This document shows positions 12,449-19,122 of a stretch of 64,000 nt of DNA, piece by piece. The number at the start of each line of letters is the position of its first letter. The first letter of the stretch is position 1. The notes beneath the pieces were generated by a model, which saw nothing but the letters and a program-made list of their open reading frames with translations, was not told the origin of the DNA and did not search any database. Where the stretch lies: the NCBI GenBank assembly GCA_963666515.2, contig OY762897.2, positions 1,504,001 through 1,568,000 of the forward strand, given 5' to 3'. The DNA is from Candidatus Binatia bacterium (GTDB lineage: Bacteria > Desulfobacterota > Binatia > UBA9968 > JAJDTQ01). A program made the position numbers and the translations under genes.

Positions 12449-13270
12449 ATGAACCCTTACGCCACCGCCTTCGTGATGTTCCTCTACCAGTTGTCGGTGG
12501 GCGGGCTCGTGGGCCTGTCGGTCACGCCCTTCAACGACCTGGAACGGGGTTTCTACAAGTCCACCGCCGGCGTCCTGGTGGCCGCGGCAGTGCTGGCGGT
12601 GTGGGGGCACATGGACCTCCTGCCCGACCGGCAGGGGCTGGGAAAGATCATCGAGCTATGTTTATTGATGAGTTTCGCACTTTTTCTCGTACTTTACTTC
12701 ATCTCTCTCTGGGGTGAACGGGGCTTTCTGCGGGCGCGTTTCTTCTCCACCGCCATACTGACCGGGCTGGGCGGCCTGATGGTGGCCTCGTTCGGCTTCA
12801 CGCCGTCGGAGCTGGGAGTGGTGGAGGCGGTCTTCCTCCCGGTGAGCTTCGTCGTTTCGTCGCTGCTCCTCGGGGCGGTGACCGTGGGCATGCTGATCGG
12901 TCACTGGTACCTGATCGAAACCGGCCAGAGCCTCGACCCGTTCTTCCGGGTGTTCCGGTTCTTCGTGGCCATGCTTGTGATACAGACCGGCCTGCAGTTG
13001 GTCGCCGTCGTCCTGCTCTACCTGTTCGGCACCGCGGGGACGGTGGCGGCGCTGGAACGCCTCTTCGAAAACCACTCCACGTTGCTGGCGTCCCGGTTCC
13101 TCGTGGCGCAACTGGGGCCGCTGGTGCTGTCGTACATGATCTGGAAGACGCTGGCCGACTTCAGGAACACCATGGCGGCGACGGGGCTATTCTACATCGC
13201 CCTGCTCGGCGTCTTCGTGGGAGCGCTGCTGTCCAGCCAAGTCCTCGCCCTGACCTTGCTGCCCGTGTGA
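12449..13270 (+). CDS. Multi-pass membrane protein with MLIGHWYL motif
   Basis: ATG at 12449 after GGGAG; many hydrophobic segments; the upstream part of the 506-aa track ORF is a shadow of ubiE. Confidence 0.75.
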   Translation: MNPYATAFVMFLYQLSVGGLVGLSVTPFNDLERGFYKSTAGVLVAAAVLAVWGHMDLLPDRQGLGKIIELCLLMSFALFLVLYFISLWGERGFLRARFFSTAILTGLGGLMVASFGFTPSELGVVEAVFLPVSFVVSSLLLGAVTVGMLIGHWYLIETGQSLDPFFRVFRFFVAMLVIQTGLQLVAVVLLYLFGTAGTVAALERLFENHSTLLASRFLVAQLGPLVLSYMIWKTLADFRNTMAATGLFYIALLGVFVGALLSSQVLALTLLPV

Positions 13271-13606
13271 GCGGGAGTCGTCCCGGGCGTCCCGGCCGTC
13301 TTGCCGGTCCTTTCGCGGATAGGTCTTTATCTTCGTGACCCGGAGGCCGTGGCCGCCCCAACCCAGGTCGTACCCCACCACCATGCCCTCCCTGAGACTC
13401 TTGGGCGAACGCAGGGCGCCGGACACCTGGACCATCTGGTAGGAGAACCGCACGTCCCTGCCGCTGGCGGTGCGCACCACCCCGGTGCCCTTCCGGGGCG
13501 AAAGGCGCCGGATGATGCCGTGGTAATAGAGGTCCGACCGCTCTTCGGCGTCGGGACTCCCGGCGTTCCCCTCCGGCACCTCAGCGTTGGCGTCGTCTTC
13601 AACCAT
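13187..13606 (-). CDS. Cold-shock/OB-fold-like hypothetical protein
   Basis: GGAGGGG RBS before ATG; YHGIIRRLSPRKGTGVVRTASGRDVRF...LREGMVVGYDL resembles a CSD strand pattern. Confidence 0.6.
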   Translation of the reverse strand: MVEDDANAEVPEGNAGSPDAEERSDLYYHGIIRRLSPRKGTGVVRTASGRDVRFSYQMVQVSGALRSPKSLREGMVVGYDLGWGGHGLRVTKIKTYPRKDRQDGRDARDDSRSHGQQGQGEDLAGQQRSHEDAEQGDVE

Positions 13607-13695
13607 GTCCCCTCCCCACTCCCGAGCCCACAATCCTATAGCCCGGACAGCGAAACTTCAATAAGGAACGGACGCCGTACCCCCCGGCCTGCGGT

Positions 13696-13821
13696 CGACG
13701 GAAATGTCGAACGGCGTAACCCGTTGATTTTCCAAGGAATATGACCCAGTCAACCCGCCGGCGGCGACGATATTGTCGATTTACGGAATCCCAAGTGCCC
13801 GGAATATCGACAAACTGGTCG
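13696..13821. promoter_or_regulatory. Three CGAC-N6-GTCG palindromic boxes
   Basis: CGAC-GGAAAT-GTCG 13696-13709; CGAC-GATATT-GTCG 13765-13778; CGAC-AAACTG-GTCG 13808-13821. Confidence 0.55.
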
Positions 13822-13838
13822 TTGGCATGAAAAGTGCG
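13822..13838 (+). promoter_or_regulatory. Putative sigma54 (-24/-12) promoter
   Basis: TTGGCATGAAAAGTGCG = GG-N10-GC with TGGCA at -24. Confidence 0.6.
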
Positions 13839-13859
13839 TATCAATAAGGAGAAGCGAGC

Positions 13860-13937
13860 ATGGCCGCGGAACCGGCCGCATCAGCGCCGAGATGGACCGC
13901 GAAGCGCTCAAAATTATTGACAATAGTCCCCATTTGA
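13860..13937 (+). CDS. Putative 25-aa small ORF (MAAEPAASAPRWTAKRSKLLTIVPI)
   Basis: AAGGAG RBS before ATG, just downstream of the sigma54 motif. Confidence 0.3.
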   Translation: MAAEPAASAPRWTAKRSKLLTIVPI

Positions 13938-13956
13938 GTAATAAAGAGAGGGTATC

Positions 13957-15021
13957 ATGTTGTCTACGGAAGCGAAACCGGCCGAAAAGACCTTCACCGC
14001 TACCGGACTCTCCCAGCCCAGGGCCCGGGAACTCGTCGGCATTGCCGAGGAGTTCTCCCTAGGCGAGCCCTTCGCCGCCGCCGGGCTCCAGCGGGAGTCG
14101 GCGGATTCGTTCTTCATCCTGGAGACCAAGCGGGGGAAGTTCATCGTGTCCATCGACGACCTCAGGAACGAGAACGAGGTCAAGCACGACATCGAGCTGC
14201 TGTTGTTCCTCAGGCGCCACGGCTTTCAATGCCTTCAGCCCTTGAAGAGCCGGGGCGGGCAACACTACCTCCACGCGGACGGCAGGTTCATCTCCGCCAG
14301 CCGCAACATCGACGGGACCGAAGTGCCCGTGAGCAACCTTACCCTCGGGCAGCTCGGGGCCGCGGGGCACGTGCTCGCCGACCTCCACCTCATCGGCAGG
14401 GGCTACAAGAAGGGGGCCGATAACCGCTTCTCCTTTCCGCGGGTGGCGTTGATGTACCAGGAGGTAAGGAAGAACCTGCCGGCGCACCTCAAGACCATCG
14501 TCCGCGTCCTGGACGACGAGGTCACCTACCTGGAAGGCTACCTGGACAACAACCTCCCCAAGGGCATCATCCACGGGAACCTTTCCTGGGAAAGCATGAA
14601 GTTCAAGGGTTCGCGCCTGGTCGGGATCATGAACTTCGACAGGGCCTGCCGCGGGAAGTTCATCTGCGACCTCGCCACCACGGTCAACGCCGTCTGCTAC
14701 CACGACGGACGCTACCGCCTGGACCGGTTCGAGGAGCTGATCCTTGGCTACGAGGGCCTTCGGCCCCTGTCGCTCCCCGAATGGGACTCCTTCCCCAACG
14801 AGCTTCGGTTCTCGGCGCTGAGGACGGCCATCACCAGCCTGCACGACTTCTACCTGCGCGAGAGCGGCGAACGGCAGCGTATCCAGAAGACCTTCATCGA
14901 CTACTTCGAGCGCCTGCTCATCCTGAGGCGGGAGAAGGACGGCGGAATGGAAGACCTGCTCCTGTCCATGGCAACCGGGTACGACTACCGGAAGTACCAG
15001 AAATCGAAGCCCTCCAGGTAA
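13957..15021 (+). CDS. Homoserine kinase type II/APH-fold protein with degenerate active site
   Basis: LADLH, LPKGIIHG, DLA, GYEGLRPLS, LRFSALR as in ThrB-II; HGNLSWES and MNFD replace HxDxxxxN and DF. Confidence 0.8.
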   Translation: MLSTEAKPAEKTFTATGLSQPRARELVGIAEEFSLGEPFAAAGLQRESADSFFILETKRGKFIVSIDDLRNENEVKHDIELLLFLRRHGFQCLQPLKSRGGQHYLHADGRFISASRNIDGTEVPVSNLTLGQLGAAGHVLADLHLIGRGYKKGADNRFSFPRVALMYQEVRKNLPAHLKTIVRVLDDEVTYLEGYLDNNLPKGIIHGNLSWESMKFKGSRLVGIMNFDRACRGKFICDLATTVNAVCYHDGRYRLDRFEELILGYEGLRPLSLPEWDSFPNELRFSALRTAITSLHDFYLRESGERQRIQKTFIDYFERLLILRREKDGGMEDLLLSMATGYDYRKYQKSKPSR

Positions 15022-15050
15022 GCCTCCCCGGAATCAGGGGTCAAGCATAG

Positions 15051-15773
15051 ATGAAGTGCTACGTGATCGGCGATGTCCACGGGTGCCTCTCCGAGCTGGC
15101 GTCGCTGGTCGAATCGCTGCCGCTGGAGCGCGGCGACACCGTGGTCTTCCTCGGCGACTACATCGACCGGGGGCCCGACTCCAAGGGCGTCATCGACTAC
15201 CTCGTGGGCTTGCGCAGGCGGGGCGACCAGAAAACCGTGTTCCTGAGAGGCAACCACGAAGACATGATGCTGTCGTACATGGGCCTTTCGGGACACCACG
15301 GCGACTCGTTCCTGATGAACGGAGGTCTTGAAACGCTGGCGAGCTACGGCGTCGCCGCTCCGGCAAGGTCACCCGGGGCTGCGGACGGGGAACGGCTGCT
15401 GGCGGCCCTGCCCCCCGAGCACGCCGAGTTCTTCATGAAGCTCGATCCCTGGTATTTCGTCGACGGTTTCCTCTGCGTGCACGCAGGCATCAACCCGCAA
15501 CGCTCATGGGAGGACCAGGCGGACGAGGAACTCATCTGGATCCGGCACGAGTTCATCACGAATGCGCACGCCCTGCCCCAGACCGTCCTGTTCGGCCACA
15601 CCCCGATGAGAGAGGTGTTCTTCGATCTCCCCTACAAGATCGGCCTCGACACCGGCCTGGTGTACGGCAACGCCCTGAGCTGTCTCGAATTGACCGGCCG
15701 CACGCTGTACCAGATACGCAACGGAGGGCACGAGGTCTCGGTGACGGACGTGGCCCACCGCTGGGAACGGTAG
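15051..15773 (+). CDS. Ser/Thr protein phosphatase-family metallophosphoesterase
   Basis: GDVHG, GDYIDRGPDS, GNHE, VHAG, GHTP, DTG. Confidence 0.92.
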   Translation: MKCYVIGDVHGCLSELASLVESLPLERGDTVVFLGDYIDRGPDSKGVIDYLVGLRRRGDQKTVFLRGNHEDMMLSYMGLSGHHGDSFLMNGGLETLASYGVAAPARSPGAADGERLLAALPPEHAEFFMKLDPWYFVDGFLCVHAGINPQRSWEDQADEELIWIRHEFITNAHALPQTVLFGHTPMREVFFDLPYKIGLDTGLVYGNALSCLELTGRTLYQIRNGGHEVSVTDVAHRWER

Positions 15774-15777
15774 GCTG

Positions 15778-16878
15778 CTACGGGTGCACCGACTCCAGGA
15801 ACCACTCCGTGGGGATCTCCCTGCCCAGGCCCTTGGCTTTGGCGTCCTCGACGACCATGCTTCCGACCGCGGCGAACTGCACGCCGAGGCCGATGTTGTT
15901 CACGAAGCAGGTGGACTCGTCCGGTCCGGTCCGTCCGGCCACCGTGCCGGCCACCACGTCCTTCAGCTCCGGAGCGTCGATCCACGGCGGCACCGTCGGA
16001 CGCGCCACCGCCTGCTTGTCCGCGGCGGTGAGGAAGTCGATGGGGTCGTGGGCCTCCACCCGCTCGTCGCCCATGCCGGCGATGTAGTTCTCGGGCGCGA
16101 TCTTGCGCGTGTGGATGACCACCCGGTCGGCCCGGGCGATGGTGTCGTCGCCCAGTTCGGAGGTCTTCACGCAGGTGAAGTGCACGCCGGGCGTGACCCA
16201 TTCCGGCGGGATCACCCGGGTGATGGCGTTGGTGGCCGCCACCAGCACCTGGCACTGCTCCGCCACCTGGGCAGCCTCCGCGCAGGGCTCCACCGGAAGC
16301 CCCACCCTCTCCGCCATCTCTTCGGCAAACGACTCCCGGTTCGCCTGGGTGGGGCTGAACACCAGCACCTTCTCGAACGTGCGCACCTTGCAGAACGCCT
16401 CCACGTGGGCGCGGGCCTGCCAGCCGGAGCCGAAGATGCCGAGATGGGTCACGTCCTGCCGGGCCTGGTACCGGGCCGCCAGCGCGCTGGAGGCGGCCAC
16501 GCGGAAAGCCTGGATCACCCCGTCCGGGAAGATCGCCAGCGGCTCTCCGGTTTCCGCGGAGAACAGCAGCACCAGGCCCACCCACTTCCCCCCGGGCGCC
16601 TTGGGGAGCTTGTCCTTGACGATGCGCCCGCCACGGTCCTCCCAGCGGATGACATCGGAGTTCAGGCGCAACGCCACCACCTTGGGATCGAACAGCCCGG
16701 CCTCCATGGACTTGAAGGCGTAAACCCCCGAAGTCTCCGGAAACGGCAGGTAGAGATCGGTGCGCGGCCGGTTCACCGCCTCCCCGTTGGCAAGCTGGCG
16801 GTAGGCCTTGTTCAGCACCTCGATGCACGAATCCATCGACAGCAGGCCCTCGATCTCGTCATTGTTCAGAATCAGCAT
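15778..16878 (-). CDS. Ornithine cyclodeaminase/mu-crystallin family protein
   Basis: LILNNDEI, TGEPLAI, FRVAASSALA, GIFGSGWQA. Confidence 0.88.
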   Translation of the reverse strand: MLILNNDEIEGLLSMDSCIEVLNKAYRQLANGEAVNRPRTDLYLPFPETSGVYAFKSMEAGLFDPKVVALRLNSDVIRWEDRGGRIVKDKLPKAPGGKWVGLVLLFSAETGEPLAIFPDGVIQAFRVAASSALAARYQARQDVTHLGIFGSGWQARAHVEAFCKVRTFEKVLVFSPTQANRESFAEEMAERVGLPVEPCAEAAQVAEQCQVLVAATNAITRVIPPEWVTPGVHFTCVKTSELGDDTIARADRVVIHTRKIAPENYIAGMGDERVEAHDPIDFLTAADKQAVARPTVPPWIDAPELKDVVAGTVAGRTGPDESTCFVNNIGLGVQFAAVGSMVVEDAKAKGLGREIPTEWFLESVHP

Positions 16879-16905
16879 CCCACGGTCCTTTCCCGATGTC
16901 CTGCG

Positions 16906-18009
16906 CTAGTCCCTGATGTCCTGGAGCAGCCACTCCGTGGGAATCTCCTTCCCCAGGCCGCGTTCCCGGCACAATTCGTAGACCTTTCCGGCAACCGAAT
17001 AGAACTGGGCGCCCTGGACGTTGCCCCGCTCCGAGTAGGTGATCTGCGCGGCCGACGTCCTCCCCTTCCCCTTGCCCGACAGGAGATCCGCGAGCATCAC
17101 GTTCTTGTCGCCGCCCTGCACCCCGTGGGCGCGGCGGCGCTTGCGCTTCATCTTGAAGCCGGCGTCGTCGTCCGGCCGGGCCGCGTAGGTAATGTACTCG
17201 TCGGGCAGGCCGAAGTCCTCCAGCCCCCAGGGCGCCGGCGCCGTGCCCAAGCGCAACGACACGTCGACGCGCTCGAAGGTCGCGGCGTCCGGGCGGCCTC
17301 CGATGGAGACGATGTGCGTCCCCTCCTCCACCTTCACCCCCTCGATGATGTCCACGGCGGAGTCGGTGCAGCCGGCGATGACGTCGGCCCCCTTGTAAAC
17401 GGCGTCCGGGTCGCTCAACGGCACCGCTTCCACGTCGAACCGCTCGGTCATCTCTCGGGCATACTGCTCGCGGTTCGCCCGGGTGGGACTGTAGACCTGC
17501 ACCCGCCGGATGTTCCGAACCTGCATGAACGCTTCCAGGTGGGAGCGGGCCATGCCGCCCGAGCCGATCATGCCCACCACCTCGGCGTCCTCCCTGGCCA
17601 TGTACTTGACGCCGATGCCGGAATCGGCGCCCACCCGCACGTGCTGGAGGTGGCCGTCGTTCAGGATCGCCAGCGGCTCGCCGTTGTGAATGCTGGTGAG
17701 CAGGATCAGGCCGCAGAAGAGCCCCGGCCGCACGCAGTACTTCTCCTGCGTGACGGCGCCGTTGTACTCCTGCTCGTAGACGATGTCCGACTTGATGCGG
17801 ATCGCGAAATAGCCGGACGTGGAGCCCCCCTCCATGGTGCCCCACTGGTACATCTTCTCCGGATCCGGCGTCGGCACCTGCAGATCGATACGCGGCCGGC
17901 ACACCGCCTCCTGCTCCACCAGCTCGGTGTACGCCTTCTCCAGTGCCGCCATGGTGACCTCCATGGTCAGCACCTGCTTCACGTCGTCGTTGTTCAGGAT
18001 CAAGGTCAT
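16906..18009 (-). CDS. Ornithine cyclodeaminase/mu-crystallin family protein
   Basis: LILNNDDV, NGEPLAI, VRVGADSGIG, GMIGSGGMA. Confidence 0.88.
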   Translation of the reverse strand: MTLILNNDDVKQVLTMEVTMAALEKAYTELVEQEAVCRPRIDLQVPTPDPEKMYQWGTMEGGSTSGYFAIRIKSDIVYEQEYNGAVTQEKYCVRPGLFCGLILLTSIHNGEPLAILNDGHLQHVRVGADSGIGVKYMAREDAEVVGMIGSGGMARSHLEAFMQVRNIRRVQVYSPTRANREQYAREMTERFDVEAVPLSDPDAVYKGADVIAGCTDSAVDIIEGVKVEEGTHIVSIGGRPDAATFERVDVSLRLGTAPAPWGLEDFGLPDEYITYAARPDDDAGFKMKRKRRRAHGVQGGDKNVMLADLLSGKGKGRTSAAQITYSERGNVQGAQFYSVAGKVYELCRERGLGKEIPTEWLLQDIRD

Positions 18010-18033
18010 GGCAACGTCCCTTCCGTAGCGGCC

Positions 18034-19122
18034 CTAGAGCGGCTCCCGCGCTTCGGCGCCGTCGATGGGCAGCTCGATGCCCAGTCCCCTCTCGCGGGCC
18101 AACTGGTACAGCCTTCCGCCGATGGCCACGTCGGAGATCCCCACCCCGCCGGTGTTCTTGAACAGGGTGATCTGATCCGCGTCCGTGCGTCCCGGCCGCG
18201 TGCCGTTCAGGATCTCGCCCACCTCGACGATCTTGTCCCAGGAGATGACGCCGTTCTCCAGCCGTTCCATGAAGTCTCCGGGCTGGTCCACCCTGAGCGT
18301 CTCGCGGGAGTTGACGCCGATGACGTCCGCCCGCCGCATGCTCTCGTCGTCCAGCTCCTGGCGCATCTTGGGGACGAAGCCGCCGCGCTTGAGGCCGATG
18401 TTGCTCACCACGATGGAGGTCAGGTGAACGCCGGGCTCCAGCCACTCGCCGTCCAGCACCGGGACGTTGGAGCTGGTGGCGGCGACCACGATGTCGACGC
18501 CCTGCACCGCCTCCCTGGCGCTGTCCACCGGGCGGATGTCCAGCCCGGTGAGGTCGCCCATCTCGTCGGCGAACTCCTTGCGGTGCGCCGGGTTCGGACT
18601 GAATACCTTCACGCCGGTGAGGTCGCGGATCTCCTTGAGCGCAAGCAGATGGTACTTGGCTTGGTTCTGGGATCCCAGCATGCCGATGGTGCTCGCATCC
18701 GCCCTGGCCATGACGTCCGTTCCCACTGCGCTGTTGGCCGCGGTGCGGAGCGCGGACACGCCGCTCAGCGACAGTTCCCTCGGTCTCGGCTCGCCGACGA
18801 TGATGCAGCGCAGCTCGCCGGTCTCGGAGTCGAACAAGACCTGGGTCGGACGCCCGCGCACCGGAAACGCCTCGATGGAATGCTCCCCGCGCACCGGATT
18901 CTTTGTCCATTCGCAGTGGGTCATGAGGCCGGTGACCCCGACCTCCGGGAGGCCTCCCTGGTGCACGCTGACGCGCACGTTGGAGGGCATGTGGGTGCGG
19001 TGCCGCACCATGCTGATATCGGGGTTGCGGTCCCACTGCGCGAACCCCTCACGCACCAGCCCGATGGCATCCTTCATGGTGATCAACCCGTCTATGTCTT
19101 CCGGACGCAGTACCAAGATCAT
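18034..19122 (-). CDS. Ornithine cyclodeaminase/mu-crystallin family protein
   Basis: LFDSETGEL, LRTAANSAVG, ITLFKNTGGVGISDVA. Confidence 0.88.
   Translation of the reverse strand: MILVLRPEDIDGLITMKDAIGLVREGFAQWDRNPDISMVRHRTHMPSNVRVSVHQGGLPEVGVTGLMTHCEWTKNPVRGEHSIEAFPVRGRPTQVLFDSETGELRCIIVGEPRPRELSLSGVSALRTAANSAVGTDVMARADASTIGMLGSQNQAKYHLLALKEIRDLTGVKVFSPNPAHRKEFADEMGDLTGLDIRPVDSAREAVQGVDIVVAATSSNVPVLDGEWLEPGVHLTSIVVSNIGLKRGGFVPKMRQELDDESMRRADVIGVNSRETLRVDQPGDFMERLENGVISWDKIVEVGEILNGTRPGRTDADQITLFKNTGGVGISDVAIGGRLYQLARERGLGIELPIDGAEAREPL

Follow-up and report, generated by a model that had tools for sequence, protein, structure and literature searches.

The stretch of DNA analysed here, 64,000 nucleotides (nt) of the genome of a Candidatus Binatia bacterium (assembly GCA_963666515.2, contig OY762897.2, positions 1,504,001 to 1,568,000) and hereafter called the window, carries at positions 13957 to 15021 an open reading frame (ORF) for a protein of 354 amino acids (aa) related to homoserine kinase II (HSK2, also ThrB-II). 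Comparison with its relatives marks the product as a catalytically dead member, as predicted from sequence, of a single-copy family that extends throughout the class Binatia and combines the fold and motifs of HSK2 with an invariant C-terminal tail. The gene stands between a predicted sigma-54 promoter and a gene for a metallophosphatase of the PPP family, and the features of the locus, by position and strand, are the following.

13695 to 13710, plus strand: distal enhancer-like palindrome TCGACGGAAATGTCGA (TCGAC-N6-GTCGA), 128 nt 5' of the sigma-54 element, from the sequence and a genome scan.
13764 to 13779, plus strand: proximal enhancer-like palindrome GCGACGATATTGTCGA, 59 nt 5' of the sigma-54 element, from the sequence and a genome scan.
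13807 to 13822, plus strand: third, imperfect palindrome TCGACAAACTGGTCGT, abutting the promoter; the weakest of the three, fitting the relaxed pattern CGAC-N6-GTCG only.
13823 to 13838, plus strand: sigma-54 type promoter TGGCATGAAAAGTGCG, from the sequence, with the -24 GG at 13824-13825 and the -12 GC at 13836-13837.
13917 to 13944, plus strand: TTGACA (13917-13922) and TAATAA (13939-13944), just 5' of the ribosome-binding site, in conserved alignment columns.
13957 to 15021, plus strand: the 354-aa pseudokinase, with an ATG start; HSK2-like protein of Binatia (APH/CAK fold) with invariant C-terminal tail residues at about 319-349.
15022 to 15050, plus strand: spacer of 29 nt, where relatives carry an antisense gene for a small membrane protein.
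15051 to 15773, plus strand: intact 240-aa metallophosphatase of the PPP family (ApaH-like or lambda-phosphatase-like), with an ATG start.

The reading frame at 13957-15021 is not a chance ORF, because the G+C content at its third codon positions is 0.90 and a homologue, always in a single copy, occurs in 196 of 201 genomes of the class. In their records, the genomes of the class go under Candidatus Binatia or under older 'delta proteobacterium' names. Searching genome collections brought up 80 further loci, so that 81 were compared with the window included. Two unpublished genomes enter the counts: G233 in the surveys of the HSK2-like gene, the phosphatase and HomK, and G329 in the survey of the HSK2-like gene; nothing is concluded from either alone.

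The first-pass annotation, which a model had made from the letters of the window, described a full-length 354-aa ORF with the landmarks of homoserine kinase II and APH, and database searches bear out this description. The protein passes the gathering score of the Pfam family APH (PF01636) with 52.8 bits against 23.2, and it aligns nearly end to end with the HSK2 equivalog models while staying short of their cut-offs (TIGR00938, 119.5 bits, cut-off 255.9; NF003558, 120.9 bits, cut-off 271). The sole solved relative recovered by sequence is the homoserine kinase of Agrobacterium tumefaciens, 2PPQ (E 6.8e-25), which belongs to the same fold and length class and aligns with the pseudokinase from end to end. 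Its structural counterpart is also 2PPQ: an AlphaFold2 model of the pseudokinase (predicted local distance difference test score 82.3, predicted template modelling score 0.81) gave 2PPQ as the first Foldseek match (E 2.7e-19, template modelling score 0.83 on the target), and the top 40 and more matches were all CAK/APH kinases.

The active site departs from this pattern. Where HSK2 has the motifs HxDLFxDN and IDF, the 13957-15021 protein has HGNLSWES and MNFD, which bears out the HGNLSWES and NF of the first-pass annotation. The first Asn is encoded by aac at 14578-14580, within cac ggg aac (14572-14580), and is followed by ctt tcc tgg gaa agc; the second is encoded by aac at 14632-14634, within ATG AAC TTC GAC. 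In the alignment with 2PPQ, GIIHGNLSWESM stands opposite GVIHADLFQDNV and GIMNFDRAC opposite GLIDFYFAC, which confirms that three catalytic residues have been lost: the catalytic Asp is replaced by Asn, the Mg-binding Asn by Ser and the DFG-type Asp by Asn. The intact Binatia members, in contrast, keep HxDLFxDN and IDF/DFE. Further replacements in the catalytic loop are F210S and D212E. In the nucleotide loop NGSVNT has become RESADS, with two residues common to 2PPQ and the intact relatives altered (G47E, and Asn to Asp), and in the ALRFxxTR helix F290 and R294, which are kept from the HSK2 of A. tumefaciens to the intact Binatia proteins, are changed to Thr and Ser (F290T, R294S). The loss of an ATP-binding Lys was considered as well, the Lys of FFxKIDE in intact Binatia proteins being Ser in the genus of the window; the same column is Thr in 2PPQ, and we make no claim of it. 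The protein lacks the catalytic HxDxxxxN and the DFG-type Mg-binding Asp of HSK2 and, with catalytic residues lost, the fold kept and purifying selection acting on it, is a pseudokinase whose inactivity is predicted.

A comparable history is known from the BSK/CotS proteins, which have the CAK/APH fold and HSK2 as their nearest characterised relative. In several of their lineages the catalytic Asp and further motifs disappeared independently although the fold residues remained, and a predominantly non-catalytic function was inferred (PMC2860764). The BSKs are nevertheless a different subfamily, spore-coat proteins of Firmicutes with neither a MATGYDYRKYQ tail nor sigma-54 control, whereas the Binatia proteins look cytoplasmic and are encoded by single-copy genes of a lineage of Gram-negative type.

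The degenerate state is a property of a whole genus. It is carried by the window and by 23 species-level loci with 83-92% identity, and is not private to this assembly, which favours the pseudokinase inference of the first-pass annotation. Among these 24 loci, HGN is found in 23, the Mg-binding Asn is replaced in every one (by Ser in 23), the DFG-type Asp has become Asn in 17, and the ORF is full length in all. The remaining 57 loci of the order (54-64% identity) retain all three catalytic residues, D, N and D. In a tree of the pseudokinase the degenerate sequences are monophyletic (Shimodaira-Hasegawa-like approximate likelihood ratio test, 100), with stem branches of 0.48, 0.18 and 0.32 against tips of 0.003-0.14, and four metagenome proteins that show only some of the changes are placed as successive sisters of the clade. 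The genome survey identifies the clade as one genus (12 of 12 genomes, that of the window included). The median ratio of nonsynonymous to synonymous substitution rates (dN/dS), computed pairwise by the method of Nei and Gojobori, is 0.073 within the degenerate clade (254 pairs with dS<1.5); the intact-kinase clade gives 0.025, but with saturated dS. The D-to-N changes, then, characterise a clade under purifying selection, a second respect in which the pseudokinase inference has held. Fixed differences between 19 degenerate and 32 intact sequences amount to only 15 sites, nine of which sit in the nucleotide loop, in the catalytic loop or beside the DFG position, while His206 and the acidic residue two positions past the DFG site are kept in the degenerate clade. 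Tree and substitutions together show what appears to be a burst of change on the stem branch, in which the active-site residues were replaced, and a new state that strong purifying selection has since held.

Loss of catalytic residues is not confined to this genus. All members of the family share a C-terminal extension of about 35 residues, RLxxLRRExxGGMxxxLxxMATGYDYRKYQ, that neither 2PPQ nor the next relative, P0135, possesses; its residues T340-Y347 do not vary among 55 aligned sequences or in any class-level sequence examined. An ESM Atlas query with the tail (residues 300-354) gave nothing informative, the matches being short unnamed clusters at 0.91. Nine of ten Binatia members tested from outside the genus score 188-238 bits against the HSK2 equivalogs over their full length (cut-offs 256 and 271), and the tenth, a degenerate member from the family that we label f85, scores 133-136. 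Among clusters built at 50% identity from 1.84 billion proteins, 32 representatives match at E<=1e-30, and five of the six that are full length and bear the tail are degenerate. At least one of the three catalytic residues is changed in 19 of 37 genomes outside the window's order, a sample of which the first 18 were taken at one to two per family and the other 19 came partly from families already suspected. By family, the degenerate forms are f2 (3/3), f85 (1/1), f88 (1/1), f90 (4/4), f86 (3/3), f81 (4/4) and f84 (3/5), and the 18 intact members are spread over f3, f4, f5, f79, f80, f82, f83, f84, f89 and f91. The replacements in these other degenerate lineages are diverse (T, A, G, R, H, S). 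The catalytic state, mapped on a tree of 59 sequences, requires eight changes, at least five of them forced by well-supported branches. Degenerate forms in several families and eight changes on the tree, with the tail unchanged, speak for a recurrent loss of catalysis in this family. The alignments and the tree thus show, as far as catalytic state can be predicted from residues, that at least five lineages gave up catalytic residues independently of one another, with the tail and the C-lobe motifs staying fixed throughout, and that the function for which the family is selected appears independent of phosphotransfer.

It might be argued that the degenerate protein is an enzyme still, either through a non-canonical kinase mechanism or with a different activity in the old pocket. 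Strong purifying selection and the retention of His206 and of the acidic residue past the DFG site fit such a view, and some proteins first called pseudokinases have proved active. On the other hand, both the DFG site and the catalytic-base position are polymorphic within the clade and neither looks functionally fixed, because the former is Asn in 17 and Asp in 7 of the 24 sequences and the latter is Asp in one and Asn in 23. Two conserved residues of the nucleotide loop are gone, and the varied replacements in the other lineages speak against one new catalytic constellation. Retained catalysis accordingly strikes us as very unlikely.

Outside the window's order, the HSK2-like gene has recurring neighbours (loci L092-L109): a radical SAM gene resembling QueE (55-77 bits, short of the cut-offs), a glycerol-3-phosphate dehydrogenase gene of GlpD type, a GTP cyclohydrolase I gene (folE) and often a glycerate 2-kinase gene. 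This neighbourhood may hint at the function of the family or may be plain synteny.

If these proteins are not needed as kinases, the question arises of how homoserine is phosphorylated in the class. A GHMP-type thrB over the cut-off was found in none of 81 class genomes, and the GHMP match in the genome of the window is IspE. The same genome encodes ThrH in an intact ORF of 198 aa (G000:C1:2269298-2269897; TIGR02137, 240.1 bits against 223.4), and a search of it for HomK found none. Looking for another thrB, as the first-pass annotation had advised, was therefore fruitless with respect to GHMP ThrB and successful with respect to ThrH. Over 121 class genomes, ThrH exceeds its cut-off (TIGR02137) in 70 and HomK is present at E<=1e-30 (TIGR02535) in 60; their distributions over the families nearly complement each other, with at least one of them in 119 of the genomes. 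ThrH occurs in all seven sampled genomes of the genus and in none of nine from the sister families f77 and f78, where HomK occurs in nine of nine. ThrH is described as making phosphohomoserine and complementing homoserine kinase in vivo (PMC1079889), and HomK as rescuing an Escherichia coli thrB mutant (bioRxiv 10.1101/2024.10.14.618325). Both are unrelated in fold to HSK2 (a HAD phosphatase and a phosphoglycerate-mutase-like protein, respectively), and they carry out what was presumably the reaction of the HSK2-like ancestor. With one or the other enzyme encoded in 119 of 121 genomes, the HSK2-like protein would be dispensable for making threonine throughout the class. These two enzymes would explain why catalysis is not needed; they do not explain the role of the pseudokinase.

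Other observations qualify the relation to threonine synthesis further. No replacement kinase was seen among 30 neighbours of the five thrC-family genes of the genome, and no threonine-pathway neighbour of the HSK2-like gene in the 20 class-level loci annotated. We also dropped the idea that the presence of ThrH had released the kinase from selection: HomK is found in nine of nine sister-family genomes, and degenerate forms occur in the HomK-only families f85, f88 and f90. Degenerate HSK2-like forms are thus seen alongside either enzyme. What the first-pass annotation had called a repurposed ThrB-II is correct as regards the fold. It has to be modified in that the whole Binatia family lies below the HSK2 cut-offs and coexists with HomK or ThrH, and in that other lineages are degenerate too. 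Public records name the APH-fold gene 'homoserine kinase'. For Binatia this label is probably misleading and would lead to wrong metabolic reconstructions, homoserine phosphorylation being more probably the work of HomK or ThrH.

Redundancy with ThrH invites the explanation that the gene is a decaying remnant with no function of its own, and the distribution of ThrH between the genus and its two sister families lends this some support. Redundancy does not, however, explain why only some lineages lose the motifs, because it is class-wide, f77 and f78 being provided with HomK. A dN/dS of 0.07, ORFs of full length in 24 of 24 loci, the invariant tail, and a promoter and enhancer sites that are newly gained and conserved all stand opposed to decay, and we regard this explanation as close to refuted.

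A further possibility is that the protein serves as a metabolite sensor, which has kept the pocket for homoserine (or phosphohomoserine) and tunes threonine or methionine metabolism. Its descent from an HSK2-like fold and the retention of most non-catalytic residues of the C-lobe are compatible with this role, and among related CAK kinases it has been proposed that some are pseudoenzymes binding pseudosubstrates (PMC2860764). But F290 and R294 of the ALRFxxTR helix are Thr and Ser in this protein, threonine-pathway genes are missing both from the 20 class-level loci and from beside the thrC paralogues of the genome, and the promoter is common with an operon for a protease and a two-component system, not with amino-acid genes. 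A sensor of this kind seems improbable to us.

Some genes elsewhere in the genome bear on the same pathways or fold. Five thrC-family genes exceed the TIGR00260 cut-off. One of them (G000:C1 902000-914000, locus L114) clusters with genes for a MoeB/ThiF-like E1, a MoaD/SAMP-like small protein and a CysM-like protein, and the arrangement resembles a sulfur-transfer pathway based on protein thiocarboxylates. Besides the pseudokinase gene, the genome has a single APH-fold gene, at G000:C1:3308676-3309245 (L133), which has intact HRDxxxxN and DFQ motifs and is followed by a nucleotidyltransferase gene, a combination which we take to be an AmgK/MurU-like pair of cell-wall recycling.

The gain of a predicted promoter also distinguishes the degenerate clade. 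The element TGGCAT-N5-GTGC at 13823-13837, 134 nt 5' of the start codon, resembles the sigma-54 consensus TGGCAC-N5-TTGC, and GGCA[CT]-N5-NTGC is invariant in all 24 aligned upstream regions of the clade, whereas a sigma-54 match was seen upstream of only one of 56 intact relatives, at -212. The sigma54 architecture to which the first-pass annotation drew attention is consequently real. In the alignment of the 24 upstream sequences, CGAC...GTCGA of the proximal palindrome is invariant and the columns of the distal palindrome are conserved. The genome encodes RpoN (419 bits against 277) and six strong bacterial enhancer-binding proteins (bEBPs), so that GG-N10-GC, inverted repeats, rpoN and bEBPs are all present for this promoter, predicted from sequence. 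A scan of the genome found 50 strict sigma-54 motifs, and at three of them the palindrome occurs in the preceding 220 nt; from the motif densities we would expect about 0.26 such cases by chance. These three precede the pseudokinase gene, an ORF of 75 aa, and an operon encoding a DegP/HtrA protease, a histidine kinase with a Cache domain and a bEBP of NtrC type (G000:C1:2321014-2322498). A relaxed genome scan for the palindrome added nothing convincing. Upstream of the protease operon, the palindrome and the sigma-54 element are kept in 20 of 20 genomes of the genus. The site at G000:C1:4496529 (minus strand; L113) lies upstream of the 75-aa ORF (MKSLTLLDVINAVGEH...), which is a possible third member of the regulon.

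The element TTGACA...TAATAA, conserved across the genus, could act as an operator or as an additional promoter of sigma-70 type. A consensus scan for sigma-70 promoters and terminators did not call it, and reported only an internal promoter-like site and a terminator-like site on the minus strand. As for RNA elements in the leader, no Rfam match was obtained at E<=1 over 13500-16000 and no consensus structure in 17 aligned leaders. Divergent from the pseudokinase gene, an ORF of 148 aa on the minus strand (13187-13633) shows a weak match to a model of the retron Se72 effector (21 bits against 82). A homologue of this ORF precedes the kinase-like gene in all 24 loci of the genus and in 33 of 57 intact loci, and intact loci have an additional minus-strand gene of about 170-184 aa between it and the kinase-like gene.

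The phosphatase downstream is, as the first-pass annotation had stated, complete in its metal motifs and begins 29 nt beyond the pseudokinase. It matches Pfam Metallophos with 68.3 bits against 21.5, and GDVHG, GDYIDRG, GNHE, VHAG and GHTP, as expected of a PPP enzyme, are all present and invariant in 35 aligned orthologues. It aligns in full length (residues 3-216) with lambda phosphatase 1G5B, including all PPP metal and phosphate motifs, and its best match is the ApaH-like protein 2QJC of Trypanosoma brucei (E 6e-15); the ApaH-like and lambda-phosphatase-like group so named also includes 5VJV. It stays below the curated equivalogs (ApaH, 70.6 bits against 176; PrpA/B, about 50 against 326).

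The reading of the locus in the first-pass annotation was that of a dedicated signalling module, in which the pseudokinase acts as scaffold or sensor and possibly regulates the adjacent phosphatase. Both genes are on the same strand, 29 nt apart, and no plus-strand terminator was found by the scan in 15022-15050. A contig from an RNA library spans 14890-15095 and bridges the pseudokinase and the phosphatase (depth about 3.5). Weak evidence of expression comes from two RNA libraries, whose contigs, 95-99% identical, match parts of the pseudokinase ORF; some stretches of the phosphatase ORF are without such contigs. The two genes are probably co-transcribed in this genome. A phosphatase homologue is found downstream on the same strand in 70 of the 81 loci of the order; in four of the other 11 the contig breaks off too early.

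Against a module, however, the 70 loci include those with intact kinases, which places the origin of the linkage before the degeneration of the kinase. It is limited, moreover, to the families f1 and f77: a phosphatase was found at a distance of up to 6 kb from the kinase-like gene in none of the 18 loci from other families and in neither of two f78 loci, though both genes are class-wide. The phosphatase is single-copy across the class (85 of 101 genomes) and, in complete genomes, lies hundreds of kb to Mb from the kinase-like gene. Its dN/dS is unchanged, at 0.159 beside dead kinases and 0.148 beside live ones. Between the kinase-like gene and the phosphatase there normally intervenes a conserved opposite-strand gene of about 125-135 aa with two transmembrane segments (most of loci L003-L082); in 19 of the 24 loci of the genus the gap of 395-445 nt holds it. 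The window, L007, L016, L020 and L025 lack this gene, which on the tree amounts to at least four separate deletions (L020 together with L025), and it is from these that the tight adjacency has arisen. A search for another copy in the genome of the window found none (best tblastn E 0.016). Synteny with the phosphatase is thus neither conserved nor uninterrupted wherever both genes occur. Comparison of the gene orders shows in part how the two came together: a rearrangement in the common ancestor of two families would have brought the phosphatase close, and a local deletion would have followed. The phosphatase does not appear to be an evolutionarily coupled partner, and the pairing looks like an accident of gene order; a signalling module of the two is, in our estimation, unlikely.

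The small antisense protein, which belongs to no Pfam family, has two hydrophobic segments and the motif YQxLLxKTAxTGLEESYRSFQELDxQKNEEVLRRINEDREKYNAARVK. Its gene accompanies the kinase-like gene throughout the order, including f78, where the phosphatase is not found.

Immediately downstream of the phosphatase, three tandem genes of the ornithine cyclodeaminase / mu-crystallin family occupy 15778-19122 on the minus strand; more genes of this family adjoin two of the thrC-family genes (L114 and L117). Between 21626 and 36076 lie two UbiD-family decarboxylase genes together with genes for a 2Fe-2S subunit, a molybdopterin oxidoreductase large subunit, short-chain dehydrogenases and an NMT1-like binding protein, a cluster that suggests metabolism of aromatic or heterocyclic acids. 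Sequence near-identical to 13700-15800 was found in 16 public runs among those listed, from six studies, several labelled as sponge metagenome, and one sponge-metagenome run gave contigs 90-99% identical over this region. The organism or close strains of it may be associated with sponges.

We favour, with moderate confidence, the view that the product of 13957-15021 is a binding protein that acts independently of catalysis and has been wired into a sigma-54 regulon in this genus. Non-catalytic binding is the most probable function because catalysis has been discarded repeatedly while the C-terminal tail has remained invariant. The HSK2-like gene belongs to a class in which homoserine phosphorylation would be covered by HomK or ThrH in nearly every genome. 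On the stem of the genus the active-site residues were replaced, and in this genus the gene also gained a predicted sigma-54 promoter with two or three upstream sites of the form TCGAC-N6-GTCGA. The NtrC-type activator of the degP operon, judging from the common site, would drive its own promoter and that of the pseudokinase, and the pseudokinase would be made as part of a small regulon, probably of envelope or protein-quality stress. Its conserved C-lobe and tail would probably serve to bind a partner or a ligand.

Several points weigh against this view or limit its reach. For any mechanism beyond 'not a kinase' we infer rather than observe, and the loss of canonical residues is formally compatible with an unusual catalytic mechanism. 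The bEBP of the protease operon is linked to the palindrome by the sharing of a motif, in a genome with six strong bEBPs. In the sister families none of 13 genomes showed the motif in front of its best DegP homologue, and the regulon cannot therefore be traced beyond the genus. The proportion of degenerate forms outside the order, 19 in 37, is not an estimate of frequency, because the genomes were chosen in part after hints of degeneration. The RNA evidence consists of assembled contigs with a depth of 3-5 from libraries that may contain DNA. Finally, the spacing of 29 nt and the probable co-transcription make a recent functional link with the phosphatase possible.

A bolder interpretation may be offered more tentatively, as one that we think possible though less than an even prospect. 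The family as a whole could be one in which catalysis is optional: an essential, class-wide role would reside in the tail and the surface of the C-lobe, for example as an adaptor or regulatory subunit of a conserved machine, kinase activity would be an ancestral extra discarded repeatedly, and the dead form in this genus would be an effector of the sigma-54 stress regulon that also controls DegP. If this should prove true, the family would be the first bacterial family of pseudoenzymes derived from a kinase of amino-acid biosynthesis.

Pseudokinases are well studied in eukaryotes but, to our knowledge, have rarely been documented in bacteria, where the spore-coat BSKs are the main example with the CAK fold. 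In the literature covered, which left most subscription journals outside, we found no description of an HSK2-derived pseudokinase, of the tail or of its sigma-54 control. The present family, near-universal and single-copy in one class, offers repeated natural 'kinase-dead' conversions under strong constraint, and its invariant tail marks the probable site of the function retained. With orthologues of both kinds, live and dead, available from sister families, and with one lineage having acquired a new promoter, it represents a clean comparative system for following what becomes of a small-molecule-kinase fold after the enzyme has been lost.

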